A program made the position numbers and the translations under genes. This document shows, piece after piece, positions 3,848 to 63,707 of a stretch of 64,000 nt of DNA. Source of the DNA: a virus; the IMG/VR virus record IMGVR_UViG_3300045988_095709, positions 33,509 through 97,508 of that record, one strand, 5' to 3'. Below the pieces are notes generated by a model. It saw nothing but the letters and a program-made list of their open reading frames with translations. It made no database searches and had not been told where the DNA came from. How positions within the stretch are numbered: position 1 is the first letter of the stretch; the number at the start of each line of letters is the position of its first letter.

Positions 3848-3849
3848 TA

Positions 3850-4368: not shown

Positions 4369-4378
4369 TATTTAAATT

Positions 4379-40641: not shown

Positions 40642-43600
40642 ATGGATATAAAAAGAATGCAAGGCGTCGCTTCATAGATTGCAGTATAGAATGCAAATCA
40701 ATGGGAGTGGGACGTACTTAGACGAGAGCGTCTTAGAGAATTAAGCAAAAGAAGATAGTAGAATAATAATACGGGATCTTCTAATACTAAATAGAAGGAA
40801 CAACAGCAATAGAACGAGTAGGCTCAATAGTCGCAACAAGGCGGCTTTAAGCCTACTTATTCTGCTACATAGAGTTCTCAAAATAAAAACATAAATCTAC
40901 ATCCTTTCTTTCTGAATGACGACGATTCAAATACAGATCCTAATTAGTTTTTATAGCCTATAGAGGTTTAGAATATGGGCTGGAATACACAAACTAAGAA
41001 TTGGATAAACGAAGGATCTACTGGAAATCAACAAAGAAGAATAAATAACAGAAACGAAATATTAGCTAGATCTAAATATAATGTTGATTTATAGTTGCAA
41101 AGAAAGAGAAACATAGCAGAAAATAGTAGGAATGGAGATATGGATTTCTATTATGCTCCATACGAAGATGCTGTAAAAGAATACGAAAAAGAAAAGCAGT
41201 GGTATATAAATACAGATCCTAGAGTATTAGAAGCTAAAAGAAAATACGAATAGATAAAGTCAGGAGAACAGCCTGAAGGATATTTTGACAGAGCTTTGTA
41301 TGCGTTAGGTCAGATATCTACTCTCGATGTGCACGGTGTTGTTAACGGAATACAATCGATATTTGCTGGTAATAAAGCTAAAAAACAAGATTTACTAAAC
41401 GATGCGTACAACGTATGGATGTAGAGAAAAAATGAGACACAGATAGCTACATCTAATGGTAAACTACAAATAGCTGATTAGATATCTAACGTGTTAGACT
41501 CTTCTTCTATAGATAGATATGTAGATGTATGTAACCAATTAATAGCAGATACAGATAGAAGAAATAGTCTTATAGACAAATATACTAGTAGAACAGGATA
41601 GGGTATTACTAGAGAAGAGTCTTTGGAATTAGACATGTTGAAAAACAGAATAAATACACTTACTAAGGAAAAAGACGAATTTGAAAAAAACATAGAATCT
41701 GCAGGAACATACGAATCTAATACTTTGTTGGGAGCTGCAATATCTAATGCGCAAGAATATTTAACCAGTGGAGGAGGTTCTTTTAATTTTGATTTTGGAA
41801 CTGGACTTGGTGGATCTCTATTAGGATTTAGAGAGAACATAACCAAATTGTAGAAAGGATTGGCTACAAGAAATCCTCAGATGGTTGAAGAAGCAAGACA
41901 GAACCTTAAAAGAATAAGAGGTGCTTACGAGAATCAATCTTAGAAAATGAAAAATCTCTGGAGAAAAGATATCGAAAGAGATACTAAAGATTTGAATAGT
42001 TATACCAGCAAATATACAGTTAGTGATTACTTTTTAAATAAAGAACAAGAAGCAAATCAAATATTAAATCCGTTCAATCCTAAGAAGTTGTGGATGGCTC
42101 CTGGTCTTTTAGGAGCATCTTTGTCTGATACTAATAAAATGGCTGTTAGCACAGCTACTGGACTTCTTACTATGTTGCCGATAGGAAGAGCTGCACGAGT
42201 AGGATTACAAGCTGCAAACTATGTGTCGTAGGTAGCTCAGGGAGCAGACGAAAACTTTGCTAACGTAGATTAGGCATACAAAGAGATAGTAAGATCGTCT
42301 TTGACTGAACAAGGATAGTATAGAACGTTTTTATAGGACGGTAGAGAAGCTATCGGAAATCCTGCTGCTACTGACGAGGATATAATAAACGCTTATTTCA
42401 GAGGAGATTATATTCCCAAAGACATAAAAGTCAGAAAGACTTTAATGAATGCTACTACAGGTTCAATGAAGTAGTTCATGTAGGGACAGGGAGTTAATCT
42501 ATTAGACTCTTGGATAGACATGGCTATAGAAACTACACCTGTTGGTAAGTTTGCAAAACTGTCCAAAATAGAAGCTGTAAAGGGCGCAAAACAAGGTCTT
42601 GCGAACATTGGAGAATCGTTAGCTGGAACTAAAGCTGGTCAATTTGTAACAAGTGCTCTAAAGAATTCAAAAGGAAAAGCTACACAGCTTGTAGACAAGA
42701 TGGTAGAGTATGGAGTACGAAGAACAGCAAACGTTTCACAGATAGCCAAAGAGATGCCAAAAAGACTTCTACAGACTAGATATAATCTTGGAGTAGCAAA
42801 TAGAGCAGTAAAAGATATAGCTAAGAGATCTGTGATAGGAGCCTACTCTGAAGCAGTAGAAGAAGGTTTGCAGCAAGAACAGCAATACGAAAGAATGCAC
42901 AATCCTTCTGATTAGTACTATGATGTCTATAAATAGATTCCTAATACTATACTGGGAGGTCCTAGATTGTGGTATTCTTTATTGTTCAAAGATCCAGACA
43001 AGGCTTCGTAGGAAGAATAGGAAATATGGCAAAGCATGGCTGGTGGTATATTAGGATCTTTTGTACAAGGAGGTTCAATGAATATTGTTCGTACTGGAGT
43101 AGACGCTGTACAACAGATGAAGGATGGAGATATCATACTCAACAATATAATAGCTGATAAAATAAACGGTGACACTCAAATCGAAAAGGCAAAGTTGTAT
43201 TCTAAAAAACTAAGAACATAGAGGGGAAAACAAAACCTGATAGATGTATTAGATTAGTATTAGCAATATAATGATAAACTAAATCAATCATATAAAGAAG
43301 GTGGTGTAAAATAGGGAATACCAGAAGAGTGGATAGCTGAAGATAAAGCTATGGTGTAGGATATAGAAAACATTCGATATTCACAAAAAACACAACAGTT
43401 AGCTAATAGATTGGGAATCAAAAATAAAAAGTTCAATCTTATAGACAACGACGATTACGATCTACTTGTAGCGATGCTATATAGAAATCAACAGCAAATA
43501 AAAGAAGACAACGATTCTTTAAGTGAGGTTGTACGTAATCAAGAAAAACAAACTCCTATTACTTTTAACCAGTTCTTAGAAAATCAAGTAAGTGCTGGAA

Positions 43601-46600
43601 ATTTAGATTAGAATTTCTTATAGAGTTATATCGGAGAGCAAAACGGAATAACAAGTTTGGTAAATACTGAAAATTTATCAGAAGAAGAGTTAAACAATGT
43701 TTAGAAAAAATATCAAGAATTACAAAATAGATATAATAATTACATTTCTAACATAGATACGATAGCTAAGCTTGCTGCTAATATGAAAACTCTTCAAGAG
43801 ATAAAAGCTCTTGATAGACTTAACGGTAGACAGTCTTTTATACAAAAACGCGTAGAAAGAGAAGTCAATAAAATAAAACAAAATATAAATAAAATATACG
43901 AACAGCAAGGAAAGCAAGCTCATAAGATGGATACTCTTTCTGACGTAGAAGATTTTTATAAGAAAGCAGGTCTTCCTATAAGTGAGGATTATATAAATAA
44001 CATAAAAACTATAGATGAATACAAATTACAACGAGATTTATCTATAGAAAAAGCTTATAAATTTATAACAGATCCCAAATACGCTAAAAAACAACTGTCT
44101 CAATACAAAGAAACTAAAAAACAAGACGAGTATTTACAACAACAAGTTGAGTCTGACTACTATGATAAAGTTCTACACGATTATGCCGTACAAGACGCTG
44201 AAATAAACGACAGTAATAATATATATGTCGGAGAAGATGGAAAAACTTATGCGGTAAGACTGAATGTAGCAAAAGACGAAAATGGAGAAGACGTTGAGTA
44301 TTATTCTAAACATCTATATGATCCAAAAACTGACGTAATGGACAGAAGTGAACTTCCTTTCGATAAAGAAGAATGGTTCGACGGAAGAGATCAGATAGAT
44401 GATATGACGCAAATAAAATCTCCTCAACTTAGAGAAAACGACGGATCTGAAGAACGTGTAGAAGAATTTTCTAAAAGACGAGATGTAAACGAATAGAAAC
44501 AAAAATATACTCAAGATCTATTAAACGATAAGAGTAGAAATGGTTATACAAGTAGAGCGAATCGTATAGAATCTTTTGTAGATGAAAATTATTCTCCGTA
44601 CAAAAGAGGAAAACAGTATTTCTTAAAGAACGGAGAAGAAGAATTAGAGATAACAAAGACGGAATATAATTACGCTAAATGGTATAAGAAAAACTATTAT
44701 ACAGAACAACAAGAGGAAACACAAGACGATGTTCAAACCGAATAGGAAAATATAGACGGACAGCGTGATAACGTTGAACCACAGGTTTAGAAAGAAGAGA
44801 AACCTTCTGGACCAGAAGAATCTCAGAACACTGAACAAGAACAACCGATAACAAATAAAGAAGTAGAACAACCTGCGAGCGAACCTGAACAGAATCAATA
44901 GGAACAACAAGATTAGGAAGAAGATCAGAAGGTTCCAGATATAAAAATGACAGACGCTCAGAAAAATGTTATATAGGATCTTTCTCAGTTTAAGGTAGAA
45001 GGTAATAAAAAAATAAGATACGATTTGCGTTCTCCTATGGATTATTTTATAGAAGACGAAGATGGAAATATACAAGCGTATCCTAGAGTACATAGTAAAC
45101 TTAAGAAGATGTTCGAATTAGACCATACTGTATATGACAATATGAATTCTATATTCGAAGAACTTGAGAAATACAGACTTGATTTTATCGATGCATTCAA
45201 ACATAGAAATGACAATCAAGATGCCGCAGATAAATATAAAAAGTCTAAAATTTCATACATAAATAAAATAAAACAGTTACAATAGGAATACAACGAGTCA
45301 TTATTGAAAACTGTAAAAAATAATGAAAACTTGTACGATTTCTATAATGTTATTTTGGATGGATATTATTCTAACGATAATATACTAATGAGCAAATCCA
45401 CTACCGATCATATATCTAAAATAGTAGGAAATAGGATTGGTGATAAGGTACAGTTACCTGCTACTTCTGTAATATCTGGTACAATAGTTGACGAAATATG
45501 TAGAAGATGTTTTAGTGGAGAAGATGTTAAAAACGAACCGAGATTCAAAATGGACGATTCTACATTCGAACAACTTAAACAAGACATAATAGATGTAAAG
45601 TCTGACTTCGAAAGCAAAGGTTGGATACTACTTCCGCAACAATATTGTTGGTATACTGAATTAGAAGGAATAGGAAGAATCGCAGGAGAAACAGATATGT
45701 TGGCTGTTGATACTGACGGTTCTGTATATCTTATCGACTTTAAAACAAGTAAGAGATCTTATAAATACGGAACTCAAGTTAAAATTAGTGGGGATAAGTT
45801 AATCACACAACCTTCTAATTACGTAGAAGCTATAGACTGGAGTTTTGCAAAATCTAACTTTTCAGCAAGAGACGAATATAGAACACAGTTTACTTTGTAC
45901 TCTATGATGATACAACAGTGTACTATGTAGAGGCAGAAAGTAAAAACAATAAATATATTAGGATTTACCGTAAAAGCTTCTGTTTCAGATAATGATCTTG
46001 TACAAATTAAATCAATAGAAAAACCTAATTTTATAGAGTTAGAAATACAGGATGATTTGAATACTTATTTGATTTTTGACGAAGATTCTTAGAACACAAT
46101 AAGAAAAGAAAAAGAAAATTATTTAATTCTCATAAATCATATAGAAAATCAGTTACAATCTGATAAAAACTATTTAAATCAGCATTTCGATGAAATAAAT
46201 AAGAGTTCAAACTTATATAGAGAGTTAGAACAACTTTCTACTAGAACTAAAGATATAAAATCTAGAATAAATAAAATAGATATAAACAAAGATCCTGTAT
46301 CTGAATTGAAAAACATTCACGATCAATATCTGTAGTTATCTACTGATTACAGTAATGCTGTACAAAAAGTATAGGATTACTTATCTTAGAAAGCTGAACA
46401 ATATCAACAAGAACAAACACCTACAGTATCTACACAAAGTATACCTGTAGATATACAGTGGGACTTTAAAGAAATAGAAAAATACGATCGTGTATGGTAT
46501 ATAAACGTATCTAGGCAGAACGAAAAGCTTAGACAATTCAGAAGGATTACTACAAATAAAGATTTTATCGAAAACACTACTTTCTATTTGGATACAAACA

Positions 46601-49600
46601 TTAAAACGTTGATGAATCATGATTACATGATAACGTTTGAAAAAATAGTATATCACACTAAGGATCAAAACGGAAACGACGTATAGTTTGTATTAGAAGG
46701 AGATGACGCTAGAAGTGTATCTATTTACTTTGCAAAATACGATTAGGACAGAAGACCGTACGGATACGGATAGAATCCTTTAGTAAAACAAATAAAGGAA
46801 GCGTTACAACAAAACGAAGAAAACATAAAAAACAAAAACTTCCAATTAGTTTTGACAGGATTATCCAGAACAAATGGAGTCATAATAAGTCTTAAAGAAA
46901 ACAAAAATGTAAAAGACACGTTCGATTTTACAGAAGAATAGATAGAACACCTGTTAGAAAATGGTACAGACCGAGTAGGTGTTACTGATAAAATGGGTGT
47001 TGTAAAAACTATAGATAAAGCAAACAAAACTATATACGGAGACGGTATATATGCAAACTCAGGAGAACGTAGATTATCTCCTGGACAAGTAGTACTGATA
47101 CACGATTTAAAATATAACGAGGATAAAGGTAACGGCAACCATAAAATACCAATCGTACTCTTACCGAAAAAGATAACAAATGCCGATGCTGATCTTATTA
47201 TAAACCTACTGAAAGACACAAGTAAGTAGGAATTGGCTGTTACAAATTCTGGTATTGTTGGACCTATAACAAAATATTAGTTGTTATCTACACTCGTAAG
47301 ATTCGGTCGTGGTGCACAAAATACAGGAAACGATTTCGTATTTAGATACAAAGAAATAGACGGTGTTGCACAAAGAGACATTGTAGAACTACAAATCAGA
47401 GATGAAGAAGGTCAATTAATTACTACAGAATATGACTTGAATAATCCTGTATCTGTAGGTCAATTAAAACGACGTTTAGTAGAAGATGTATACTTATATA
47501 CAAATAATATATCTGTATTAAACAAGGCTACAAATAAGGCAAGAAACACAGATAAAAACAACATATTCTCACAGTTACAAGAATTCTTCGAAAACAATCC
47601 TAATATAAACTAGATAAGTTATGGAGAGAGTATGGTGTTCAATCGTGCAGACGTAGATCCTGACGGAGATGGTTCGTACAAAGGAATAACAGGATTACAC
47701 TGGATGATAAGACACGGTTGGCTTACTACTAACTACGGTGGTGTTACAGATTCTATTTTCTCGGCTACAGGAGTTTAGGGAATAATACCGAACAAACAGT
47801 AGTAGAATATAGAACAACATCCTGAACCAGAAAAAGTAGAAAATATAGACGTATAGCCAGAATAGAATGTCGGCGGAAACATAGGATACGAGAAAGAAGA
47901 TGTTGAAGATGTTAGTATAGACGACGTTAACGAACTTCTTGGTGGAGACTTTGTGGCAGACAACGAAGGTCTTTTCCATAAGCAAAAAGGAAAAGCTAAT
48001 GTAAAGATAGAAGAGAATGTAGCAAGAAGAACTATAAAACGAATTGTTGGAGACTCTATACCTTTACAGATGATAGACGATATTATATCGGTAATGTATG
48101 ATGGAGATGTTGTCGGTATGTGTACTGCAGCTAGTATATATATTTCTAGACAAGCTGAAGCCGGTACTGATTACCACGAGTCTTTCCATGCTGTTGTCGA
48201 ACTTCTTATGGATAAAAATAAGCGTGAGAGTTTGTATAAATTTACTAAGAATAAATTTAACATGCAAAACGCTACAGACGAAGAAGTTGCGGAAGCTTTA
48301 GCAGATTTATTCTTCTTATATAGTAAAGATGCTATACATTTTGAGGGAAGAATTGGAAGACTGTTCTCTTATGTAAAAGACTGGATAAATGCATTTAAAG
48401 TTACAAAAAGTTTAAGGCTTGCTAATTTGTTTGTGAATGCAGATTTTGGAAAATTCGCAAATAAAACTATAAGCAAAGAACAGGTTAACGATTTTAAAAA
48501 TAGATTCCCAAAAGGTCTTAACTTGAAAATAAAAGGTAAGAACGGAAATGGTGTAGAATTTAAACACATATACACATCTACTCAATTAGACGACGCAATT
48601 AATTATTTAGTATATCTGATAATAAAGAATGAAGGTATAAGTAGTATTGGTTCTAATCTAGACAAGTTAGATATTTCTAAGGAGCATCTTACTAATACGA
48701 AACTTGACGAAAACAACAAACCGATTTCTAATTTCGGAAAAACTTATAGAATAGTAACAATGAGCGGTAAGTCTGAATAGGAATTGGATGATTTAGTAAA
48801 AGAAGGAAAGATAACGCCTCTCGTTAAAAACAACGTGTTAATAATGAGAGAAATATTTAACAATTACGAAGACATCAAACCTATGATACTCGCAAAGTTG
48901 AAGAGCATGGGTGTTAACTCTAGACTAGACTAGGAATAGACAGAAAGAGAAAACAAAGAGGGAGACGATGTTAGTCAAATATCACGAGATGTAGATTCTC
49001 ACGCAGACGAATTCTACACACATTCGATGTCTGACGATTTATCTTCTAATATGATATTCTTCTTAAGTACTAGACCTGCATTAAGATATGCTACATAGGA
49101 GGATGTTGATAATGGAATTGTACAATCTTTGTATAAGAAAGATAGAAACGGAAACGAACAGAGAGTTTTAGTATCTTCTTCTAAAAATTCTATGGGAATG
49201 ACTACTTTCCTAGATTACAAACAAGTACACTAGTTATTATTATCAAATCTTCATGATGTGAAAGACGTTGAAGATTTATATAACAAACTTAAAAAACTAG
49301 GAAAGAACGATTATCTTTATGAAAATATAGCAAGAAGTTTATATCAATTTAGATTCCAATCTTATAAGAGATATACCAACAGAAAAGACGGAATGGATAA
49401 CGTACCTATGGTAATGTATAAAGGAAAATTATTAGATCCTAAACATTATATTTCTAATAAAAACAAATTATCATAGGAAGATCTGTATCCTAAGTTTGTA
49501 AGATGGTCTCATGATGTACTCGACAAGAACGGAAAAATAATATTCAAAGCCGGAGATGTGATACAGGGTGCAAGTATTGTGATGAATTACGATATGGAAA

Positions 49601-52600
49601 ATCTTACTACATAGTTGTTCCAATCTATAAAATCTCAAAAGTTAGATTATAACTTCTTGTATATAAGATCTGTAGTTGACGATAACGGAAAAGTTATAAA
49701 CGGAAATTATTTATATTCTTACCATCCTACCAACTACGATAGATCGCAGCAACAATATCCAATACAATGGTTTGATAACTTACGTTCTTCTTTCAGCGGA
49801 TTATTTACTAAGTCTGGAGATCTTAATAAGAATTTTACAAACTTTAAAGACTCTAAAAAATATCTTTCTGAATTGTATAACGCGTTAACGTTGGCGAAAG
49901 CTAATAACGGAAAGATTACAATAAACAAAGTAAATTACGACTTGACAAAAGGATCTGACTTAAGCGTTGTTATATCGTAGTTTGTAAAAAGTATGAGAAA
50001 CATAGGCGTAGATATAGATACCAATATGGTTCAATATTTACTACAACAGATGAACCCTGATGAACCTATGTTATACTTGGCATTCGTAGATTTAATAACT
50101 AAGGGAGGAAATAATAGTGTATACAGTATATTATAGCTTATAAAAGATAACGGTATTCTAGACTTAATGCAAAATAGGCTAGAGGCTGGAGACATATCTT
50201 TCTTTACAAAAGATCAACCTAAAAACAATAGAATACACGATAGTATAAATACCGGATCGTATGTTTATACTAAGAGTGGCTTCTTAACGTTATTGGCAAT
50301 GTGGCAAGGAAAATTTAGAACATCTACTACAGAACTTATGACAATAGGTCCTGAAAACACAAAGATGTATACTTTTGCTCAAAACCATACAGCTTCGGAT
50401 ACTATATACGATCTTAATAATTCTTATGACGAAAACGGAAATCTTGTAAAAGGATGTACACTTGAAGAGTTAAGTTAGGTGGATTATGTATTAGCTAGAG
50501 ATCAGCAAGGTAATAGAATAGGATCTATTATAGGAAAAACTCTTATGAATAAATATTGGAATCCTAATCATAATAAATTACAACTGAGAACTTCTGCTGG
50601 AACTAAATCTTCTACTTATTCTGACGAAGGATCTAAGTATTCTAAGACTACTTCTAGAGAAGACTATATGGCTAAAGTACAGATGTTGTTATAGGGAGAT
50701 ATAATATTCCCGGCATTGTCTGATAAATCTACATATTTCTCTATAAGCGGAATAAAACTTCCAGGACTTAATTTCGATAACAGTTCTTCATCGATAGGAA
50801 GTCTTCCGGTATTTAACTCAAACACTGGAACAATGATGTTTATACACAATGTGATGGAGAATTCTGATGATAAGATAAGAAGTATTGAGGATAATCCGAA
50901 AAGCGGATATAGATATAACGACGTTCTTGATTAGTTTATAGAATATTTTACTTGTGAAAATATAAATGTAAACAAAACTATAAACGACTTAGGATTGTAG
51001 GAATAGAACGCAACAAATACTCCGATATCAGAAAATCAGAAAATTACAAACTATCACAAAGGAAGTATAAATGGTGCAAGATATTTGAGTTTGATGGGAA
51101 TATACGCATTAGAAGATATGGAAATAAAGATAAACGGAAAAACTAAATCTTATAAAAAGGGAGATTATATACCGTTTAACTTTAAAGCAAATACTCCTAG
51201 TGAAGGTATACTTGAAGGAAGAAATCTTGCTCAGTCTCTTTTCTTTGACCAACCTATAGAAAAACAAAGAGTGATAGTAGCTGAAATATTAAGAAGAAGA
51301 CTTGATGATACGTTGAACGACTTGTTAGAAATGGGAATAATAAGCAAAAACGACAATGCTTCTAAAGCAAAAGGTATTGTTACTCATGATTATTATTCTT
51401 ATAAAAATAATTATTTTGACGTAGATAAGATAAACAGATTAGCTAGGTGTTATTCTAACATAGAAGGAATACAAACTTTCGGAAATTCTGCATTAGAGTC
51501 TTTAGGTGTAGTAGCGATGGCGTACGATATAATGTGTAAGAGTATGATGTCTATGGAAGAAACAAGACGTTTCTTTACGGGAATGCCTCAGTTCTTTAAA
51601 ACAAAATATTCTTCAGAAGGAAATTTAGTAGATTATGGAACAGACGAAACTAAACGTTACGGAGGTGAAGGTTCTACTGGTTCTAATAACCGTGAAGACA
51701 TGGCTAATATACCAGAAGAGTATACTTGTGCAGAGCTAAAAGATTGGGAAATTTCGTCTGCTATAAGCGAATCTTTGGAACAGGCTTTCAAAGAAGGAGA
51801 ATATAGAGAGTCGTTATCTGTATACTATAGCGAAAATCCATCGTTAGGTAAACCTTCCGACGCTTATAATATGTCTATAGAAGACGTAGAAAAAGAATTA
51901 GAAAAAACAGGAATGTTAGAAATGATTGACATGAAGATAAAAAAAGAATCTAATTCTTATAAAAGCGAAATAAACGTTACAGACGGTACTGCTTACATAA
52001 CAGATACTATGGCAGAAAATCTGTTAAGAATGCGAGGAGCGTTTAATAACGAAATAGCAGAAGCGTTTGAAAGACTGAGAGGCGATAAAGGATACCTAAA
52101 TAGTGCACAAGATTATAAACTTATACACGAAGCACTTATAAGTACATAGAAATATTCTGCTTTCGGATACAGAATGCAAAACGGAATACCGGTACACTTC
52201 TACGATAAGTTCGCATTGTTCCCAATGTTCAAAGGAATATCTTTCGGATTTAGTAGAGATCTTTATGATAAGATGCGTAAAGAGGGTGTAGATATGGTAA
52301 TGTTTAATTCTGCTGTAAAATCTGGATCTTAGGGTGCGTAGAAGTTCTCTCCTGATATGACAAAAGAAGATTTATAGAAGTTTACATTTAAAAACAATAT
52401 CTATAAACAAAAGTATAAGTACATAAGAAGGCAGTTGAATACAGATCCTAGAACTGATGAAGTAATGGCTGCAGGAACACAGGCTATGAAGGTTTCTCTC
52501 AGTGTACTTAGAGATTGGCAAACATATTCTATACAAAATCCTGACGGAACGGAACAAACTTTGAATAAAAACGAAGTATTGAGTGCTATAATGGACAGGA

Positions 52601-55600
52601 TGAACAGAATGGCTGAAATAGGAAGTCAGTAGATAAAAGAAGAATTCTTTACCAACGGAAAGCTAGATTACGCAAAATTAAAAGATTTCATAGTAAGAGA
52701 ACTTTCTAGTAGAAATGCCGATAAGAATATACTTGAAGCTGTCAATTTGGATTATCTTACTGACGAGAACGGAAATATAATTCCGGAAAGCGTACATTTT
52801 GTTACTGACATAAACGTAGTTTCTAATATGGCATGGATAGAAAGTATATTGATATCACATATAAATAAAAAAGTAATAGATATTAATTTTAAAGGAAATG
52901 CTTTCTATCAGAGATCCGTGTTTGGTCTTGATAGCCCTACTGTATTAAACGACGATTAGGTAAAATACGAAATGAATGGTGGTAAACCTCTGCAGATGAT
53001 AAATGAAGAGGGAAGTATGGACGCAGTAATAAGTATAGACTACTTTATGGATATTATACCTAAGAAATATAGATATAATTTCAAAAAAGCAAAACAATGG
53101 TTGATTGACAACGATATTATATCTGGTATAAAAACAGGAACAAAAGAGTGGAATAATGCTAAAGCTAGTGTGTTATCATACCGTATTCCTACTCAGGCGG
53201 CATCTTCTATTCACGCGTTAAGATTTGTAGACGTATTACCAATCGTTAGAGATACTATAATACTACCTAGAGAGTTTACTAAGATTACTGGTTCTGACTT
53301 CGATATTGATAAATTGTATTTATCGTCTTTCTATTATAATGTAAACAAAGAAACCGGAAAGTCATCTTTGATAATGGACGACGAATATGAAAATACAGCA
53401 AATCAACTTCTTTCTATATATCTTTCTTTGATTAAAGATGCTGGAAAACAAGTTACAGACGGAAAAATATCTAAGTCTAGATACATGCATATATTGAACA
53501 GATCTATTGATAACGATACAGAGTTGATAACCAATGTTCTTTCTGATATAGAATCTGGAAAAACTAAAAAGACCGTAGAGCCATATCAATTTGAAAATCT
53601 AACCAATCAAGTAAAGATAAAACAATCATTTGCTACAGGTAAACTCGGAATAGGACCGTTTGCGTTGAATAACAACAATCAGGTACTTACTATGTTGTAC
53701 AACGTTTCTTTCAAAGATTTTGGAGACAACGATAAAAGTTTATTAACTTATATCGGAATGAACAGGTTAGATAGGATTACAGATATAAACGGAAACCATA
53801 TATTATCGTGGATATCTGCGATGATAAACGCACACGTGGACGTTGCGAAGGATCCGTATATATTAAGATTAAATGTAAATAAATTTACATATAATCTAGT
53901 AAATCTACTTATACGTTGTGGTCTAGGAGATAGAGCTTTATATTTCATCAACAACCCTATAATAAAAGATTTAGCTAGAATAAGTGAAGAAACGCAAGGA
54001 AGAATAGTTGATGAACCGGAAATAAGCGTAAGAAAAAGGTTTGAAAACGCTTAGGAACAGTATATACGTGACTGTAAGTTTAGAGATGAGTCTTTTTCTA
54101 AGTTGTATATGAAAGCTAAGGACGAAGAAAAAAGAGCTGCTGAAAAGAAAGATTTTGATAAAATCGCAGAAATAATGGGAATGGATAGAGACGGTCTTCC
54201 AATAAATAGTATTAAAATATTTAAAGACGGTCAGTATTATACTGTTGATGGTACATATATAATGAGAGACATTTTAAAAAATAAAGACGTACTCATAGAT
54301 GAAAACAAACCGTTAAGTATGGATAATCTTAGAGACGACGATCAGTTTTATTACGTGTTGGAAGGTGATAGAAGAGTTACTCCAAAAGAAGTTTAGATGT
54401 ATATATTCTTAGCTATGCAAAATTTAAACATAAATGCAGCGGCTCTTTCTGCAGTAGTACAGGCTACTAAAGTAGACACTAAAAAGCACGGTAAAACTGT
54501 AAGAGAACAATCAGAATATAATGCTAAATACGAATAGTTATTAAGAGGTGGTATATCTAACATGTTTGAAAATTTGGATAACATGTTGACAAAATCTTAT
54601 ATAAACGTTAAAACTAATCTCGGAATAGGTATTCCTAAGAAAATTCTTTAGGAGTTTTCTATAACAGCTACAGACAATTTTAGATACGTAGTGGATTCTA
54701 TATGCTCTATGTACTTAAACAACTAGACTTCTAAAACTAAAACATCGATACAGAATGCTGTTCTCGCATACGTTAAACAGATTGCTATGAATAAAGCTAT
54801 GGAAGATAACGGAATAACTAGCGAAAAGTGGATGGAGATGATACAAGGAAGAAAAACGTTAGCACAGAGAATAACAAACCTTCAGAACATATTGATTTCG
54901 GATGTAGATGGTAAATATAAATCTTTAGCTACTAACGGAACAATAATAAATCCATTACTTGCTAATTTGCGAAGAATTCCATATCAACCACAATACGGAC
55001 AGGTTCACTACGATCTTATAGGGTTAGAAAACAAAGGAGCTGACGATAGTGAATTGAGTAATAACTATATTGATGCATGGTAGCAACTTTTAGATTATGA
55101 TGATCCTCAATATCCAAAAGAGTCTGAAGCTATAAGGAAGCTAGCTAGCGATCTTGCTGTTTATGCGTTTGTGACATCTTCTGATACTAAAGGAACAAAT
55201 AAATTTTTCAAATATGTTCCTGTTTCTTGGAGAAATGATTTTGGGTATTCAGAGTATATAAGATAGGCTTTTTAGTACTTTAAAGACGGAAACGTAAAAG
55301 TACAAGAAGATGCTGAAGATGGATTTTTAACTATAGATCCGTACGAATTAATAATGAATAACTATATGGATCCTAATATTCTACCTACACATAAGATGAA
55401 TAAGTTTATGGGATCTTCTTATCAGTATAGTGAAACGGATTTCTAGGGAAAGATTATAACAAGTAATATATACACAATGATTGCAGGTCTTGTTAACGAT
55501 AGACCTACAATGTATAAATCTGAATACATTACACAATATCCTCCTTTTGTCAGAATACAAAGACCAAATACCAATAGATTTTCTGCAGATTAGTATTTGT

Positions 55601-56760
55601 TGTATAGACTTGCTGCTTACGGTACTAAAACGTTATCTGACGGTAAACAGGTATCTTATCCTGTATATATACTTTTAAATCCTAAAGGTCAGAGAGTTAA
55701 AATAGGTGCTCAAAATTATGATTTCTATTCTGTAGGAAGAGACGATAATTATCAGCACGATTTCTTAAAAGGTGAAACTCCAAACTTCTTAGAAAAAGTA
55801 AAATGGATATAGAAAAACATAGAAAAAATACAGGAGTTGAGAGCAGCTAAAACAGCAACAGTAGGAGACGTGAGATAGTTGTTCGACATACCGGCAGGAG
55901 ATAGTTATTCTATACAAACGTTCGGAAATATATAGAGAACAGTATATCAAAATGAAAAATACGGAAATATAGGAGAAGCTGAAATACAACACGACTAGTT
56001 ACAATTAGAGCTCGGACCATATGGTGAATGGGAAATAAAAGGCGATAATACTTCTAAATTTGATACAAACAAAGCATTAGATACATACACATTGCATTCT
56101 GGTGGAGCAAAAGGTTCAGACTCTTACTGGGGAACAGCAGGAGAGAAATACGGCTTATTGTACGACGATAAACACCAAAGACACTATTATCACCAAGAAA
56201 AAACTCCTGTAGGAAATGTAGAAATATCTAATTAGGATTACGAAGAAGGAAGATACAAGGCAGCATAGGCTGCTTCAGCAAGATGGGGATATAACTTGAA
56301 AACAATGAAAGATAATAGATTGATTAGAAATTGGGCTCAGGTTAAATATTCAGATGCAATATTTGCAATAGGAACTCTTGTTAAACCCGGACAACCGATA
56401 GATCCAAACAACAATAAAGAAACAAGAATTGCTAAGAAAGTAATAGTTTCTGGAGGTACCGGATATGCTGTAGAGATGGCTATACAAGCTGGTAAACCTG
56501 TATACGTATTCGATTAGAGGAGAAACAGATGGTATAAGAACATAGACGGAAAATGGTCTAAATCAGATATTCCTGTACTTACTAAAAATTTCGCAGGTAT
56601 CGGAACTAGAGAGTTATAGGATAACGGAAAATAGGCTATAGAAGACGTATATAAAAAGACTATAGAATAGATGTAGAAGAACTCTACTAATTAGGATATC
56701 GATATCAATATAGAAGATTTCAGTAATCTAAACGAATAGAGACATGAACAATGTGATTAA
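40642..56760 (+). CDS. Giant multidomain virion protein (5372 codons) containing an RNA-polymerase-type DxDxD motif
   Basis: I read frame 1 codon by codon across every gap between 25 same-frame track ORFs, from ATG 40642 to TAA 56758-56760. TAG was the only stop. The last upstream in-frame stop is TAA 40609-40611. Embedded signatures are annotated separately below. Confidence 0.8.
45304..45930 (+). other. PD-(D/E)XK (RecB/Cas4-type) nuclease domain inside the giant protein
   Basis: The sequence ...GETDMLAVDTDGSVYLIDFKTSK... (D-F-K at 45736-45744) is followed by ...RTQFTLYSMM..., which fits the QxxxY motif typical of RecB-family nucleases. Confidence 0.55.
48100..48310 (+). other. Candidate zincin metallopeptidase motif inside the giant protein
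   Basis: HESFH (48175-48189) fits HExxH. It is followed 35 residues later by EALAD, which fits the ExxxD third-ligand motif of gluzincins. Confidence 0.4.
52972..54054 (+). other. Putative catalytic region of a crAss-type virion RNA polymerase
   Basis: The motif ..TKITGSDFDIDKLY.. places DFDID at 53296-53310. This DxDxD metal-binding motif is analogous to NADFDGD of multisubunit RNAP beta-prime, and lies within a very large virion-module protein as in crAss-like phages. Confidence 0.55.
56092..56514 (+). other. SLOG / DprA / DUF2493-like Rossmannoid domain at the C-terminus of the giant protein
   Basis: The signatures are LHSGGAKGSDSYWG ... NRLIRNWAQVKYSDAIFAIG ... VSGGTGYAVEMAIQAGKPVYVFD. 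These fit the GGAxGxD and GGTxxxxxxA..GKPV pattern. Confidence 0.45.
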
Positions 56761-56772
56761 AATTATTAAATT

Positions 56773-59700
56773 ATGGTATGTATAATAGAGAGTAAATATT
56801 AGAAAGAAATAGAAGATCTTACTGGTATAATTGGAGACAGGGAGACTGCTATATCACTATTATGCGCAAATAACGGGTTCACCTTAGACAAAACACCCTA
56901 GGGTGAACCGTCAGATTTGTATCAATAGTTATTAGGACAGTTCTCAAACGACGAAGCAGGAAGAAGACGTGCTATTATATACAAAGCTAGAACGTTCGGA
57001 AGTTCTTTCGTTAATAAGTATGGAAAATGGTTTGAATAGGACGCATAGTCGTAGAATAACAATTTTGACTCTAACGGTGAACCTGTTTTAAGTATAGTAC
57101 TTGGTGATAAAAATTTGTTTCAAAATAGTACGGAGTAGGATTTTTCACAACTTAAGAGAGAGTATGTCAGTCGTTTAGTAAACGAACTTCTTTTTGAAAA
57201 CCCAAACGCTAGTCAAATAGAAATACTAAACAAAGAAATAGAAGCACAGCAAGAGTGGGCTAATCAATAGGCTAATCAGTTGGACGAAGATGTTGAAATG
57301 TCCAGAATAGACGCAGAAGATACAAAAAGACTATTGAAAAACGAGAACATATTGATTGGGAAGGCTAGTAAATCTGTAATATAGATGTTTAGAAAAGCAA
57401 AAGAAAGAGCTAAAAAACTTAGAGAAAATCTAAACATAAAAAGTCTAAATCTGAAAGATGACTTATCAAACAAAATAGACGAGACAGCCAACCAGATAAT
57501 ATCTGCAACTATAAGTAAGGAAAAGGCTTATAAATCTAAAAACTTCTCTTCTTCTACTTCTTATGGAGATATAAACTAGTAGATATAGAACTAGGAAAAT
57601 TCTAGAAAAATACGTGGATATAGAAAAAGTATAATAGAAGCACAAAATAGTAAAAATGCAAAGAAAGAATTAGATGCAAAACTTGAAATGTTCTTGTATT
57701 TTATAGAAAATGCATCTGACGAAATAAATAAAATATTATCAATGCTTCTTAATGCTGAGGCTAATGAGTATAAAAAGATATATTATAAAGTAGATAGCGT
57801 TGGAAATATAATATACAACGATGAAAACAATAAATATTACACCGAACAAAACGAAAAAGAAGGTGTACAATACGGTACGTTTGATTTTAACGACCTTCAG
57901 TATATAAACACTGATGTTATTGGATTTTACGACGGTGTACTACATAATATATTATTGATATTAGACTAGCTTGACGAAAATGATCCGAAAGTTAAATTGC
58001 TTAAAGACTCCATAAGAATTTCAGATGTATGCAATAATATATTTTCAGCTAAAAGAAAGTATCAGATAGCTCTAGAAAATAAAGTAATGGATATGGTCAG
58101 AGAAGGTCTTGACGAAATTCCAGAAGAAAGACTAGACTCTGAAATGAAAGCAAGATTGATAGTAAGAACTAAAAAATGGCTTAGAAATCAGTACGATTTT
58201 GGTGATGTTACTGTATTCGAAAGAGTTATAGGAATAGGAAGTAGATCTAAAAGTTCACTGATAAGACTTATTCAGGAAGTAATAAACTAGATAGAAAACG
58301 AAATACGTATAGAAACAAGTAAGAAAGGTTTTAAATTAAATGATCTATACAGAAAAGCGTTAAATAAAAACAAAAAATATATGCTTCCCGGTATGAGTTT
58401 GCAGTAGTTACTGATGGGTAAAGACAGAAACGGTTTACCAAACGGAGATTTCGTAAGACCTATAAATTACAGACAGTATCAACAAGATTTAGAGAACATT
58501 TAGGCTGAATTACTATTTGGAAAAGATGGTATTAGAGACCGAATTGCAAATCTAAAAGACGATAGTGGTAATTATATATTCAGATATCCAGATACGAACA
58601 CTTACGAAATAGAATTTGATGAACACGGAGAACCAATATTACCAAATCATCCAAAACTAGAACAAGCATATAAGAATTACTATAAGAAACTGGAGTCTTG
58701 GAAATGCGATCATTCTGAAAGACCGTATACTAAAAAATATTATATTGAAAGGTTGGATCATTTGTCTATATCTACTATACAAATGATGAATAAGTTGTAT
58801 AGTGGAAGAAACGAGATAATACAAGCTGCTACAGTAGACGGATAGTTCAGACCTGATAAACTTTCTGATTTCTAGTTAGACGAGCTGAATAGATACAATC
58901 AAGAAATACAACAGTTGTCCAGTCCTTTTTATATTGACGGAACAGAAAAAGATCCTTACACTCCAGAAGGAATTGCAGCTAGAGAGATAAGTAGTTGGCA
59001 AAATACAATATCTGACCACATAAAATATAAGACTAGTATTGAAAAGTACAATCAAGCATTATCTTTTGCGAAAGATAAGAAAAAATTTGCTAGATTGTTC
59101 AGTAAGTGGATAATAAATCCTAAATTATACGAATGGTTGGATGATGATTTTCAGATGAATAATTCGTACGTCAAATCTCTTAAAAAGACCATTAATAAAC
59201 TTATGGCTCCGTACAAAACAGATAAAATCGGAGAAGTCAAATGGGATATGCTTTTTGATTTTGAAACTGGAAAAATCAAAAATGAGAAATGGTTTGAAAG
59301 TATGATTGAAGTTTCTAAAAGATATAGTGAAGAAATATCTTTATAGTATAAAGATTATTCTAACGAAGATGATAACGGTGGTACAAAATATAATGAACTA
59401 ATAGACGAGGTGTATGTACCAAAACCAGGATTTCAGTACGATTTTTCATATACTTATGAAAACTCTATGCTTAAATACATGAAAGATGCGTATTAGAATT
59501 ACTTGGTAGAAAACAAAGGTTATAGTACACAACAGGCTAGTTCTATCGCTGCGAATACATTTTCGTATACTTATATGACAGCAAAGGGTAAACTTATAAG
59601 TAAACCTATTTCAATATTTATGATGCGCGTTCCTAAAGAAAAGAAACAATTTAAAGGTATAGATGGAAATTATTACAAATCTTTTATAAGAACGCCTTCT

Positions 59701-62073
59701 TCTATGTTTTCAGAGATAGATTTAGAAAACTCTTCTAGTGATTATATAAATAAAAATTACGATAGACAGTCAGATTAGACTTTACAACCAAAAGAGTCTA
59801 TATATAGAGATGAAAACTATTATAAATATATAGAAGGAAAGAAAGAGATGAAAGAATTGTACGATGAATTAATTAGTACAATGGAACAATCTTTTTAGAA
59901 CTATCCTTTTGTGAAGAAATATGATTATAGATTGCCACAGAGAGGAGAAACAAGAAATTCATCTATACTTTCTAGAAATCTATTGACAAGATTGGGTGTA
60001 AACGTAGGAGAAGTTTTAGATAGAACTCTGTCTGTAAACGAAAACGATTTGGATATAAATTTCCAAGAATAGGTATTACGACCAGATGGAACACCTATTA
60101 AAAATATACCAATAAGGTGGATAAGAAGACTTAGTAAACCTGAGTATATATCTTCAGATATAATAGGTTCTGTTACTTTAATGTATGGAATGTCTGTAAA
60201 CTATAAATTAAAAAATCAAAAAGTTTCTCAAGTAGAGTCTATTTTAAACTATATAAGAAGTAACGATCCTAGTAGTTCTTCAAAATAGGCAGAAGCTATA
60301 CAAGGAATGATAGATAGACAATTCTATGAAGAACAGACATCTGGACTGAAAGTAAATCCGACGCCAGAATAGTGGAAACATGCTGATTGGTTTAGAAGAT
60401 ATTTCTGGAGTGCTAAATCATGGTTGAAAAAAGTAGGACAAATAAGAGGTATCGCATAGTTAGGTATGTTGGCATTCAACTTAGGTTCTGGTATAGTTTC
60501 GTCTTTAGACGCTACTACTAGTATGGTTATAGACGTTCTTACTGGAAAATATATAAACTATAAAGACTTATCTTATGCATTCAGCCAGTTAATGTTTGAT
60601 TTACCTAAAGCTATAAACAGCTTAGGTAAAATAAAAACCGATAGTGATATATGCGCTCAGATGTAGTATTTTGGACTAGCAAAAGGAAACGCTCAGACGT
60701 TTAGAAACACCGATTATAGTAAACTGAGAAGATTTTTATCTGACGGATTACTTATGAAACAATTTGCAATAGGCGATTATACAATCAACGCTTTAAATAT
60801 GACATCTGTACTATATAATTATAGATTGTATGTAGATTAGGATGGAAAACGTCAACTATTAAATAAACCTGACTTCATAAGAAAGGCTATAAACGACGGA
60901 ATGACATATAAACAAGCCAAAAGTGCTTATAATTCCGCAAAGATAGCAAAACGTTTCCTTAAACGTGGAAAAGACGGCATGATTACTGTAGATAAAGAGT
61001 TTGAAAAGGATATGTACAGAATAGGACAGTAGATAAGAAGTAGATCGTCAATATACAACGGTGTTATAAATGATGCTGAACGTACATATTTCCAATCTAA
61101 TGTGTGGTTGTCTTTGATATCAATGCTTCGTAATTTCTTTATAGTAGGTATTTGGGAAAGATTTTAGACTTATCGAGATTTTCAAATGAGTGTCGAATAG
61201 ACTTTTGATCCTGAAACAGGAGAGATACTAAACGAATACGGAGGAGAAAATTTAAATCCTCAACAAGCTGCCAATATAAAGAAAGAATAGAGATATTATG
61301 CAGGAGGGTACAACTTCGATACCGGACAGATAGAAAACGGAACAACATTATCGTTCTTTAGATACTTATCTAAACTATATCCTTATCTTAAGTATTCAAC
61401 AGACGTAATATTCTCAGGAATGAGTAAGTACGATCCACAAAGAGAGTAGTACTTAAAAAATAACAATCTAAACGCGTAGGAAATATACGGAGCTTAGAAA
61501 ATAACTATGGAATTTACAGCAGCGATGTTATTTATATTAGCCAGTGCAAGTATATATAGAATAGCTAAAACAAAAGATCCAGATGACGATGATGCTTATT
61601 TGTGGTATCTTATCAACTATGTTATGGTTCGTCTCCCTATCGAAAGATTTACGTGGATGTCGTTAGATACAGTGAATGACCTTATAAATTCTATCACAGC
61701 AGCTTCTTCTGATTTAAAACGAAAAGGACATTTGATAGATATGGTTATGGAAGCGTTAGGATTAAGTAAGCACAAACTCACTGACGAAATGCCTTCAAAC
61801 AGTCAATATGCAGGTCAACAGCGATGGTTTTATCATCTTTGCAACATCGGTTCTAGTTTTGGTTTGCATAACTACTATGTTAATATGCCTAAAGCGTTAG
61901 GTGGAGGAGGAGCTAAACCTTTGATGCGTAAAGCATATTTCTATTATGATAAATTACCATTTGGTAATTATATTTACGATAGAGGTAAAAAGACAGACAA
62001 AGTAGATAAAAGAAAAAAGAATGTCGGAGTTTCTGTTATTAGCGATGACAGTAATGACGGATTTGATAGATGA
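56773..62073 (+). CDS. Second giant virion protein (1766 codons), function unknown
   Basis: I read frame 1 codon by codon from ATG 56773 to TGA 62071-62073 and only TAG interrupts it, first at codon 10. The C-terminal third has hydrophobic segments (60466-60560, 61507-61575). Confidence 0.75.
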
Positions 62074-62133: not shown

Positions 62134-62182
62134 AAAGGAGACTATAATTCCGATTTTTTCGGAACTATAATCTCCTTTTTTT
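62134..62182. terminator. Bidirectional intrinsic terminator at the convergence of the plus and minus transcription units
   Basis: AAAGGAGACTATAATTCCG (62134-62152) pairs with CGGAACTATAATCTCCTTT (60160-62178 region, 62160-62178), giving 19 bp with 2 mismatches. A T-run lies downstream on the plus strand and an A-run upstream, which is a T-run on the minus strand. It overlaps the last codons of the minus-strand gene 62142-62660. Confidence 0.7.
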
Positions 62183-62660
62183 GTAATCTATGCGAATCGC
62201 TTATCGTGTATTGAAAATCTATTTCAGGCACGGATTCAACTTCAAAATTATATTTGTTTTCAGAAGGATTCAATACGTATTTAGTAAAATTAATATCCGA
62301 TGTTCCCCAGAATTTTAATATAATTTCTGGTTTATAAATCATCGGATACACACTTTTTATCATGCGTTTTACTAAATGATCGACAGTTTGAATCGCATAG
62401 ATTGTATAGGATTTTCCATTTATCATGTATACTTTTGAACTTCTTAGATTTTTAAGCTTTAAGAATTTAAAGTATCTTTCCTGACTATCTATTGTTTTTA
62501 TAGAATTATCGTACATTAAAAAGATACAATCAAAAATAGCCGGTCTGTTGATATCGTAATTATACGCATTAACAAAACCGGCTGAATAGCTAAAATCCTT
62601 TTGTGAAATTGCAGTACTACTAAATAATAAAGGAATTATAGCTTTTATTTTAACAGACAT
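62142..62660 (-). CDS. Hypothetical protein (172 aa), standard code, TAG stop
   Basis: The ORF is uninterrupted and its stop codon is TAG (complement of 62142-62144). The N-terminus is hydrophobic and signal-like (MSVKIKAIIPLLFSSTAISQ). Confidence 0.7.
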   Translation of the reverse strand: MSVKIKAIIPLLFSSTAISQKDFSYSAGFVNAYNYDINRPAIFDCIFLMYDNSIKTIDSQERYFKFLKLKNLRSSKVYMINGKSYTIYAIQTVDHLVKRMIKSVYPMIYKPEIILKFWGTSDINFTKYVLNPSENKYNFEVESVPEIDFQYTISDSHRLQKKEIIVPKKSEL

Positions 62661-62667
62661 ATTGATT

Positions 62668-63699: not shown

Positions 63700-63707
63700 A
63701 TAAAAAA

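Follow-up and report, generated by a model that had tools for sequence, protein, structure and literature searches.

The giant late gene and its genetic code

The plus strand of the window, by which we mean the whole 64-kb stretch of viral DNA analyzed, carried a giant late gene at positions 40642..56760. The gene comprised 5,372 codons followed by TAA and encoded a protein of 616.9 kDa with a pI of 5.6. The frame opened with ATG at 40642 and closed with TAA at 56758-56760; a frame count gave 104 in-frame TAG codons and no in-frame TAA or TGA. Given the base composition of the window, 5,372 codons free of TAA and TGA would arise with a probability of 7e-158, which bears out the single 16.1-kb frame (TAG read through) described in the first-pass annotation. 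When the gene was searched by megablast in the phages collection, the only match was 167 nt long; in DNA sequence it is therefore without a close relative among those catalogued. The Rfam scan of the 64-kb window gave no match, and the tandem-repeat scan gave nothing relevant.

With TAG read through, 32 genes followed one another without gaps on the plus strand from 119 to 62073, each of them terminated by TAA or TGA. These late genes contained 325 internal TAG codons, and none of them ended in TAG. An apparent chain of ORFs of about 200 aa (23012-25582), split by TAG, was rejected as an artefact of stop-to-stop listing. The giant gene was located late in the operon, after TerL, portal, the major capsid protein (MCP) and structural genes. 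It was followed on the same strand by a gene of 1,766 aa with 36 TAG codons (56773..62073), a homolog of cr124_1 gp02 and cr130_1 gp80. This gene, which comes second in the terminal cargo/transcription block, had one TM-like helix (aa 1577-1595). The MCP was 82-89% identical to those of Oafivirinae, and on sequence grounds the phage is a member of the Suoliviridae (Crassvirales).

A second IMG/VR strain, 96.9% identical in nucleotides over the shared 31.9 kb, carried the same ORF with 5,375 codons and 102 TAG. The two ORFs differed by three indels of 4, 4 and 5 codons, all in frame. The dN/dS ratio between them was 0.062 for the whole ORF and 0.02-0.09 per segment, and low values also spanned module junctions and linkers. 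In a third relative, 57% identical, the frame stayed open for 4,790 codons or more and contained 71 TAG. These comparisons show the giant ORF to be genuine: independent strains keep it unbroken, and strong purifying selection acts along its whole length. They also speak against the in-frame stop or assembly chimera that the first-pass annotation had named as grounds for refuting it.

The codons that differed between strains at TAG positions were exchanges with CAG or CAA in 11/14 and 10/12 cases. Together with the dN/dS of 0.06, these swaps indicate that TAG is read as glutamine. Moreover, in the homolog alignment, residues aligned to TAG positions matched the spectrum seen at canonical Gln codons. 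Judged from these sequence comparisons, the late genes use genetic code 15 (TAG = Gln). For crAss-like phages, metaproteomics has proven that late proteins carry Gln at TAG codons (PMC9523058). We found no tRNA, including an amber-suppressor tRNA(CUA), in the 64-kb window, which is part of the genome. Other recoded Suoliviridae have been reported without a suppressor tRNA too, and the tRNA-Gln of cr130_1 has the anticodon UUG. With 104 TAG codons, a per-codon read-through of 99% would give a computed full-length yield of 0.35, and one of 95% a yield of 0.005; by this arithmetic, near-complete reassignment of TAG must be assumed. The 104 sense TAG codons thereby set a quantitative requirement for how efficiently the code is switched.

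Modules of the giant protein

The four motifs located by the first-pass annotation (nuclease, HExxH, DFDID and DprA-like) were all at the correct coordinates. In a Pfam search with the whole protein nothing was significant (vRNAP_plug at best, E = 0.066). In PHROGs, ten tiles of the protein gave matches limited to the nuclease and the DprA-like module, and the RNA polymerase (RNAP) and zincin regions were left unrecognized.

The N-terminus (aa 1-372, 40642..41757, plus strand) was a Gln/Asn-rich low-complexity segment with 23 Gln in the first 130 aa and a dN/dS of 0.055; a search for homologs of aa 1-372 detected none. The following region (aa 373-1352, 41758..44697, plus strand; dN/dS 0.02-0.07) was kept over aa 373-1000 in 11 of 102 giant homologs and in cr124_1 and cr50_1. 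Its only tblastn match (aa 373-1355) was a weak, collinear one to the cr50_1 giant gene, and its similarity to gp67 of phage phi14:2 was marginal (iE 1e-3). Next came an E/Q/P-rich acidic linker (aa 1353-1430, 44698..44931, plus strand), in which 19 E, 19 Q, 6 D and 6 P were counted among 78 residues. The Gln-rich N-terminus and the acidic tract at 44700-44930 noticed earlier were both present by composition.

The segment of aa ~1560-1800 (45319..46041, plus strand) is well supported, by profile and motif evidence, as a PD-(D/E)xK nuclease domain of the RecB/Cas4/lambda-exo type. Its motifs lay at aa 1685-1753 (45700-45930), and residues G1613, D1617 and R1621 were invariant, as were D1685, D1699-F-K1701, Q1749 and Y1753 in 13 giants. 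The domain matched phrog_298 (E = 1e-6) and PDB 9iab (E = 0.014). Pfam PDDEXK_1 was found in 12 of 13 members (best 2.4e-7), with the window's own copy scoring 20.3 bits, slightly below the 22-bit cut-off. The RecB-type signature proposed at first pass is therefore well founded. Between the nuclease and the HExxH module, homology defined a conserved region (aa 1831-2400, 46132..47841, plus strand), which a single-sequence search found in 8 of 102 giants.

The HExxH...E module (aa 2449-2623, 47986..48510, plus strand) was delimited by its conserved motif and predicted topology. The HESFH motif started at aa 2512 and was followed by E2551xxxD (48175-48310). H2512, E2513, H2516 and E2551 were kept in at least 90% of 35 sequences. 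Of the 102 giants, 100 contained HExxH, and it preceded the RNAP tile in 91 of 91. The core of the AF2 model (pLDDT 85-97) consisted of a helix, a mixed five-stranded sheet, the HExxH helix and the Glu helix. An exhaustive HMMER search with the HExxH segment retrieved 431 relatives, where a prior homolog search with it had retrieved none. No significant match to the module was obtained in the Pfam, PHROGs or PDB profile search, Foldseek of the model against PDB gave noise, and hhalign to the HExxH region of phi14:2 gp65 was weak (E = 0.024). The zincin-like label of the crassvirus domain was itself derived from HHpred (bioRxiv 10.1101/2020.03.07.982082). Of the zincin signature claimed earlier, the near-invariant HExxH...E and the zincin-like topology of the model stand, whereas a significant database match was not obtained. 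The module is probably a zincin-like protease, as motif conservation and the predicted model suggest.

Homology further identifies aa ~2750-5050 (48889..55791, plus strand) as an apparently complete gp66-type virion RNAP module, collinear with nearly the whole of phi14:2 gp66 (residues 195-2101). BLASTP against gp66 gave E = 6e-27, and four collinear family profiles gave 6e-5, 9e-28, 2e-127 (1.6e-127) and 6e-21. The catalytic metal-binding motif DFDID (aa 4219-4223, 53296..53310, plus strand), the DxDxD (DFDxD) signature of the beta'-like double-psi beta-barrel, was in register with TGSDFDIDK of gp66. A region matching gp66 603-965 was also present by profile comparison (E = 9e-28) and may hold the second, beta-like barrel. 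The structure of gp66 is presumably PDB 6VR4; a phmmer search of PDB sequences with aa 1801-5372 gave 0 matches. By tblastn, the RNAP region had 93 matches, Bacteroides crAss001-type phages included. The RNAP motif called at first pass, and the comparison with cultured phages proposed alongside it, thus led to very strong gp66 homology, with the motif aligned residue for residue. Virion RNAP activity has been reported for phi14:2 gp66 (bioRxiv 10.1101/2020.03.07.982082).

The protein ended with a mobile module (aa 5147-5340, 56080..56661, plus strand) that appears distantly DprA/SLOG-like and carries SGGAxGxD ... GGTGYA. Its dN/dS between the two strains was 0.29. The DprA-like match covered aa 5147-5293 (56092-56514), with E = 7e-10 to phrog_768 ('DprA-like'). 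Among 32 members, Pfam DNA_processg_A was hit in 3 (2.2e-4) and cpYpsA in 4 (0.056); TIGR00732 (1/32, 0.054) and the Shosta antitoxin ShosA (16/32, 0.0016) gave sub-threshold signals. The structure was modeled from homolog P0010, 64% identical to the window copy, with a pLDDT of 96.8. Foldseek of this model against PDB found no significant neighbor (best E = 0.058, TM 0.19), and in BFVD it was weakly linked to a MoCo carrier (0.02) and a DprA-like protein (0.15). We do not take the Foldseek noise for this model and the HExxH model as a sign of new folds. The family, absent from Pfam, comprised 929 homologs, in phages. Elsewhere, its relatives stood alone beside HD/NUDIX genes or were fused to ART-PolyVal (PF18760), helicase, NADAR and Zeta-toxin domains. 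For the SLOG/DprA-like C-terminus of the first-pass annotation, the coordinates and one PHROGs match hold, while the remaining signals were sub-threshold; the label is a weak one.

Relation to known crassvirus cargo proteins

The overall reading given at first pass, a giant crAss-like ORF with TAG = Gln that joins an RNAP to a nuclease, an HExxH module and a DprA/SLOG-like one and looks like a polyprotein or polyvalent protein, was supported. The description 'exceptionally large' was not, given that 36 of the 150 top family representatives had at least 5,000 aa (maximum 6,939) and a RefSeq homolog had 5,801 aa. Homology places the ORF in a large family of fused proteins of 3,000-6,900 aa. The nuclease occurred in 17/102 giants (~17%), the C-terminal module in 10-11/102 (~10%), and both together in two other clusters. 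As judged by these sequences, the family is modular: its HExxH-RNAP core stays constant, and accessory modules can be exchanged around it. [quoted passage not shown] The locus therefore adds one more member to a kind already known.

The nearest systems were cr130_1 gp79 (YP_010113266.1, 5,801 aa) and the cr124_1 giant (~5,190 aa), both from Suoliviridae/Oafivirinae (genomes of Yutin et al. 2021). In both, as here, the giant gene ends the late operon and is followed by a gene of ~2,000 aa and then by a minus-strand replication module. Both are also TAG-recoded (74 and ~100 TAG, respectively), with HExxH upstream of RNAP. The cr130_1 protein was collinear with aa 2279-4910 and the DprA-like end, whereas the N-terminal ~2,280 aa were unalignable by BLAST; cr124_1 was collinear over nearly the full length. 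Identity in BLASTP HSPs to cr130_1 and cr124_1 was only ~22-32%, rising to 53% and 47% in the DFDID region. The DprA-like C-terminal module appears to be missing from cr124_1, and module content varies among lineages.

In the Cellulophaga phage phi14:2, gp66 (2,180 aa) is likewise encoded in a late/structural operon and is a virion protein by MS. However, gp65, gp66 and gp67 are three separate genes in the standard code, in contrast to the one TAG-recoded ORF described here. The HExxH gene of phi14:2 (gp65) follows the RNAP gene, whereas our HExxH module precedes the RNAP inside a single ORF, and gp65-gp67 have neither the nuclease nor the DprA-like module. Family profiles of the downstream gene and the N-terminal tiles matched gp65 and gp67 marginally at best.

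In crAss001, the RNAP-associated cargo found in virions comprises gp47, gp49 and gp50 (262, 154 and 277 kDa; PMC10172136). The RNAP region is homologous in crAss001-type phages, but the crAss001 cargo consists of three polypeptides, compared with one 617-kDa ORF and its 1,766-aa neighbor here. Polyvalent proteins of phages and conjugative elements, as defined by Iyer et al. 2017 (PMC5512222), join many effector domains in a single injected polypeptide around a zincin-like HExxH domain, the probable processing peptidase, and some bring a polymerase that gets transcription started. The giant protein may be similar, with several predicted domains and an HExxH module as its hub. The polyvalent N4-type vRNAP is, however, T7-like and single-subunit, whereas the RNAP here is predicted from sequence to be of the two-DPBB, multisubunit-like type. 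No diagnostic polyvalent-protein Pfam domains were detected in the giant ORF, and crAss-like phages are mentioned 0 times in PMC5512222.

Proposed role and competing explanations

The locus is very probably a late gene of a Suoliviridae phage that encodes fused crassvirus RNAP-associated cargo proteins. The giant gene would be translated only once the phage has switched TAG from stop to glutamine. By analogy with cultured relatives, we infer that the ~617-kDa product would be packed in the capsid, extruded through the tail partly unfolded, before or with the DNA, and refolded in the host; packaged crAss001 cargo is expected to leave the virion partly unfolded (PMC10172136). The gp66-type two-barrel RNAP module with DFDID may then transcribe early phage genes without the host RNAP. 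The HExxH...E module is, judged from its motif, the leading candidate to cleave the polyprotein, to activate the polymerase, or to do both. The nuclease and the DprA/SLOG-like module could be accessory, lineage-variable effectors delivered along with it, plausibly acting on nucleotides or on DNA, whether from the host or from competitors. The steps from packaging through ejection to cleavage, and the accessory roles, are all drawn from such analogies, and our literature search found no cultured Suoliviridae phage or virion proteome. As a clean, validated example of a Suoliviridae giant fused RNAP cargo gene, the locus is of modest importance; studies of expression and processing, and correct code-15 annotation, may take it as a template.

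A rather unlikely alternative is that the product is one chain, packaged and working uncleaved like the 3,500-aa N4 vRNAP, with HExxH acting on host targets such as peptidoglycan or host proteins. Drobysheva et al. named peptidoglycan digestion or RNAP activation as alternative roles for the zincin (bioRxiv 10.1101/2020.03.07.982082), and N4-like vRNAPs are giant single chains with fused zincin-like domains (PMC5512222; PMC13434306). Moreover, the giant protein has no recognizable cleavage sites. Nevertheless, the analysis of polyvalent proteins favors zincins as processing peptidases (PMC5512222), and a tail channel of <50 Å (PMC10172136) would be easier for pieces to pass, although an unfolded 617-kDa chain could still do so.

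Less probable still, and to be considered doubtful, is the proposal that the nuclease and above all the C-terminal module are an injected counter-defence, hitting host DNA or nucleotide second messengers at entry. If so, work on the C-terminal module would establish a novel enzyme family with which phages counter host defences.

It is very unlikely that partial or context-dependent TAG read-through, or internal starts, yield nested separate proteins and no 617-kDa chain. For such an outcome speak the 81 TAG codons ahead of the RNAP catalytic motif, which at less than ~99% read-through each would leave little full-length product, the coincidence of the catalytic modules with the longest TAG-free stretches, the separate genes for homologous functions in phi14:2 and crAss001, and the window's lack of a detected suppressor tRNA. 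However, the TAG codons inside the 32 late genes, none of them a terminator, include those of TerL, portal and structural genes, whose products are needed at full length, and between strains TAG exchanges with CAG/CAA like a synonymous Gln codon. The inter-strain indels are all multiples of three, with low dN/dS over junctions and linkers. In addition, at least 36 family clusters have single ORFs of at least 5,000 aa, HExxH always being upstream of RNAP, and metaproteomics of related phages recovered peptides across TAG-encoded Gln (PMC9523058).

An assembly chimera or a decaying pseudogene with a fortuitous frame, which the metagenomic origin of the sequence and the lack of detectable homologs beyond close relatives for most of the N-terminal 1,450 aa might suggest, is effectively refuted by the ~1e-157 probability of the open frame, by the independent contig that carries the same ORF intact at 96.9% identity with a dN/dS of 0.06 (0.02-0.07 in the orphan N-terminal segments), and by collinear homologs in cr124_1, cr130_1, L012 and dozens of database giants.

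The reading frame and its amber codons

The giant gene (window 40642–56760, + strand) starts with ATG, ends with TAA and comprises 5,372 sense codons. The codon count (104 TAG, no TAA and no TGA inside) confirmed the uninterrupted TAG-read-through frame proposed in the first-pass annotation. Given the base composition of the window, the probability of a TAA/TGA-free run of this length is ~7e-158. Relatives of the window are present in two IMG/VR contigs. The first, IMGVR_UViG_3300045988_119203, matched window 32140–64000 with 96.9% nucleotide identity (954 mismatches, 12 gap openings). Its copy of the gene spans 5,375 codons, 102 of them TAG, and closes with TAA; the two giant proteins are 97.7% identical, with just three indels (4, 4 and 5 codons). 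The second shares 57% identity in the catalytic region, and its frame runs unbroken for at least 4,790 codons, 71 of which are TAG. Between the window and IMGVR_UViG_3300045988_119203, dN/dS (Nei-Gojobori) was 0.062 for the whole gene and 0.02–0.09 by segment, including the N-terminal 1,450 aa, which mostly lack recognisable homologs. The sole more relaxed segment was the C-terminal module (0.29, a value underlain by few substitutions). Since related contigs contain the same ORF and dN/dS is low, we can for practical purposes rule out that the ORF is a pseudogene, a sequencing artefact or an assembly chimera; both contigs keep the frame open, and neither an in-frame TAA or TGA nor a chimeric join was found. 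The first-pass annotation had placed all four motifs correctly, and likewise the Gln-rich N-terminus and the acidic tract.

With TAG read through, ORFs of 150 aa or more summed to 23,245 aa over both strands, up from 7,780 aa, and the + strand between 119 and 62073 resolved into an array of 32 genes without gaps. These late genes terminate in TAA (24) or TGA (8) and contain 325 internal TAGs in total, TAG making up 31% of their Gln codons. Replacement of TAG between strains, a test free of any assumption about the genetic code, gave CAG or CAA as the partner codon in 11 of 14 cases in one direction and 10 of 12 in the other. Residues of homologous giants (family members with 3,000 aa or more) at TAG positions were led by Q (20%), followed by E, K and N, in a comparison slightly biased because the alignment had Q at TAG sites. 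The residues at canonical CAA/CAG codons were similarly Q (24%), then K, E and N, while L, K, D and I were foremost in the background.

Two minus-strand ORFs of the replication module (62142–62675 and 62668–63720) lack internal TAGs and are both terminated by TAG. TAG is used in two ways in one genome, as sense in 119–62073 (+) and as stop in 62142–63720 (−); thus, the genome displays the known late code switch of crAss-like phages, which was validated by metaproteomics (PMC9523058). In the 64-kb window, ARAGORN detected no tRNA and Rfam no family, and the tRNA-Gln of the crAss-like relative cr130_1 (L003 32361–32432) carries UUG instead of CUA as its anticodon. No agent of amber suppression is thus apparent here, as has likewise been reported for other recoded Suoliviridae. 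Of the TAGs in the giant gene, 81 lie before the catalytic Asp triad and 104 before the stop, which would cut the computed full-length yield to 35% at 99% read-through per codon and to 0.5% at 95%; hence, read-through must approach completeness. TAG density drops along the protein, from 17–19 TAGs in 500 aa N-terminally to 2–7 in the RNA polymerase (RNAP) core. The longest TAG-free stretches are 51007–52149 and 52960–54054 (both RNAP), 47866–48780 (HExxH module) and 45286–45930 (nuclease). They coincide with the catalytic modules, which may be due to nothing more than a low Gln content and strong conservation there.

The RNA polymerase and the accessory modules

The earlier assignment of the DFDID region to an RNA polymerase was upheld by comparison with gp66 of the cultured Cellulophaga phage phi14:2, a virion RNAP that has been characterised both biochemically and structurally. 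Residues 2701–5044 aligned to gp66 by BLASTP with E=6e-27 over 856 columns, with TGSDFDIDK in exact register. Profiles for four consecutive tiles, made from giant members of the family, were strongly homologous to gp66 and collinear along it, at residues 195–327 (6e-5), 603–965 (9e-28), 954–1701 (1.6e-127) and 1689–2101 (6e-21). Judged by this collinear homology, ~aa 2750–5050 therefore correspond to an entire gp66-type polymerase.

Directly upstream of the polymerase lies the HExxH module. With the TAG-free query aa 2409–2712, exhaustive HMMER searching returned 431 representative relatives; HExxH was found in 100 of 102 giants, and His2512, Glu2513, His2516 and Glu2551 were at least 90% conserved in 35 aligned sequences. 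In the AF2 model (mean pLDDT 74.9, core 85–97), a helix and a five-strand sheet are accompanied by the helix with HExxH and by another bearing the Glu. The conserved HExxH...E and the predicted topology thus agree with the zincin proposed previously, but no significant zincin match was obtained in the PDB profile search, Foldseek against PDB, Pfam or PHROGs, and therefore we hold the zincin label as probable. It is consistent with a published HHpred-based call (bioRxiv 10.1101/2020.03.07.982082). The module profile matched the HExxH of phi14:2 gp65 only weakly (E=0.024). The gp65 gene of phi14:2 (L010 10998–27201) follows that of the RNAP, whereas the HExxH module precedes the RNAP in the window ORF (segment 47986–55791) and in 91 of 91 giants, suggesting that the families differ in module order or that their HExxH domains are non-orthologous.

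The RecB-type nuclease recognised in the first pass was substantiated by phrog_298 ‘exonuclease’ (E=1e-6, PHROGs), by motifs invariant across 13 giants and by Pfam PDDEXK_1, which matched 12 of these 13 members (best 2.4e-7). The window copy itself scored 20.3 bits against the cut-off of 22 bits. The invariant residues (Gly1613, Asp1617, Arg1621, Asp1685, Asp1699, Lys1701, Thr1702, Gln1749 and Tyr1753) form the D...(D/E)xK...QxxxY sequence signature of the RecB/Cas4/lambda-exonuclease branch. The nuclease is probably active, because all catalytic residues are kept.

The C-terminal module (56080–56661), annotated earlier as SLOG/DprA-like, matched phrog_768 ‘DprA-like’ with E=7e-10 (PHROGs). 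Sub-threshold profile signals pointed in the same direction (Pfam DNA_processg_A and cpYpsA; TIGR00732), and ShosA, a component of Shosta, was a weak but recurrent sub-threshold match in 16 of 32 members; the family has no Pfam model. The model of homolog P0010 (64% identical; pLDDT 96.8) had no significant structural neighbour in the PDB. In the viral structure library it matched helicase-fused phage proteins and the equivalent parts of the giants of cr130_1 and cr272_1, and weakly a MoCo-carrier (0.02) and DprA-like proteins (0.15). A distant relationship to DprA/SLOG is plausible. Many of the 929 homologs are stand-alone proteins of ~205 aa with up to 66% identity, located in small-gene arrays of other phage contigs and adjoining HD/AAA_33 and NUDIX genes; others are fused to helicase, ART-PolyVal, NADAR, DUF4326 or Zeta-toxin domains. 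Two homologs lie in other phage contigs at L005 7493–8251 and L006 6001–6618.

No function was assigned to the Q/N-rich N-terminus (aa 1–372), the N-terminal region (aa 373–1352), the E/Q-rich linker (aa 1353–1430) or the region between the nuclease and the HExxH module (aa 1831–2400). The segment aa 373–1000 recurs in 11 giants as well as in cr124_1 and cr50_1, and is marginally similar to phi14:2 gp67 (iE 1e-3). The giant protein has no strong transmembrane segment.

Size, precedent and proposed role

The interpretation of the first-pass annotation was essentially right, except for its claim of exceptional size. The best 150 representatives of clusters at 50% identity include 36 of at least 5,000 aa and 44 between 4,000 and 5,000 aa, with a maximum of 6,939 aa. 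The RefSeq protein cr130_1 gp79, named after its DprA-like domain, has 5,801 aa (CDS 17,406 nt, 74 TAGs), and the cr124_1 homolog, spanning the ends of its record, has ~5,190 aa. The 102 giants include 93 with the RNAP catalytic tile, 17 with the nuclease and 10–11 with the C-terminal module; two of them, P0213 and P0149, have both accessory modules, like the window ORF. Neither the size nor the fusion architecture is exceptional for Suoliviridae. [quoted passage not shown] Hallmark status has been given to RNAP genes of ‘up to ~6000 aa’ (PMC10136315), and a transcription block made up of giant proteins with several domains, TAG being reassigned in the delta group, has been reported (PMC7886860). 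In the polyvalent-protein concept of Iyer et al. 2017 (PMC5512222), zincins are processing peptidases and N4 vRNAP is among the examples.

By analogy with phi14:2 and crAss001, the giant product would be made late, kept in the capsid cargo zone and extruded through the tail partly unfolded; after refolding in the host, its RNAP module would transcribe the early genes. The invariant HExxH...E module, sitting right before the polymerase, would be the natural candidate for a role in cis-processing or activation. Because the nuclease and the C-terminal module vary between lineages, a function as effectors in host takeover or counter-defence is more likely for them than one in the transcription machinery. 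The remaining interest lies in these modular accessory domains, above all the uncharacterised DprA/SLOG-like family, and in the question of polyprotein processing.

Genomic setting

The crAss-like origin was corroborated by the capsid protein, 82–89% identical to those of Suoliviridae/Oafivirinae (Dulem virus 42, cr272_1, cr7_1, cr124_1 and cr130_1), and by the gene order. The giant gene is followed by a gene of the ~2,000-aa class and then by the minus-strand exonuclease/ATPase/primase module, an order that is the same in cr130_1 and cr124_1. GC skew changes sign at ~62 kb, at the gene-strand switch. The downstream gene (56773–62073, +; 1,766 aa, 36 TAGs) is homologous to cr124_1 gp02 and cr130_1 gp80; its product had no PHROGs or Pfam assignment, contains one TM-like helix near the C-terminus and is probably a further ejected cargo protein. 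Upstream of the giant gene, all on the + strand, PHROGs identified TerL (4379–6442), the portal (6445–8940), the major head protein (11723–13243) and a large virion structural protein (32198–37000). The major capsid gene is unbroken in the window, whereas in several relatives it is split by HNH or intron insertions. Unlike other late genes, it has no TAG over its 506 codons, and its 2-kb bin has a GC content of 0.40, unique in the window (~0.29–0.32 in the neighbouring bins).
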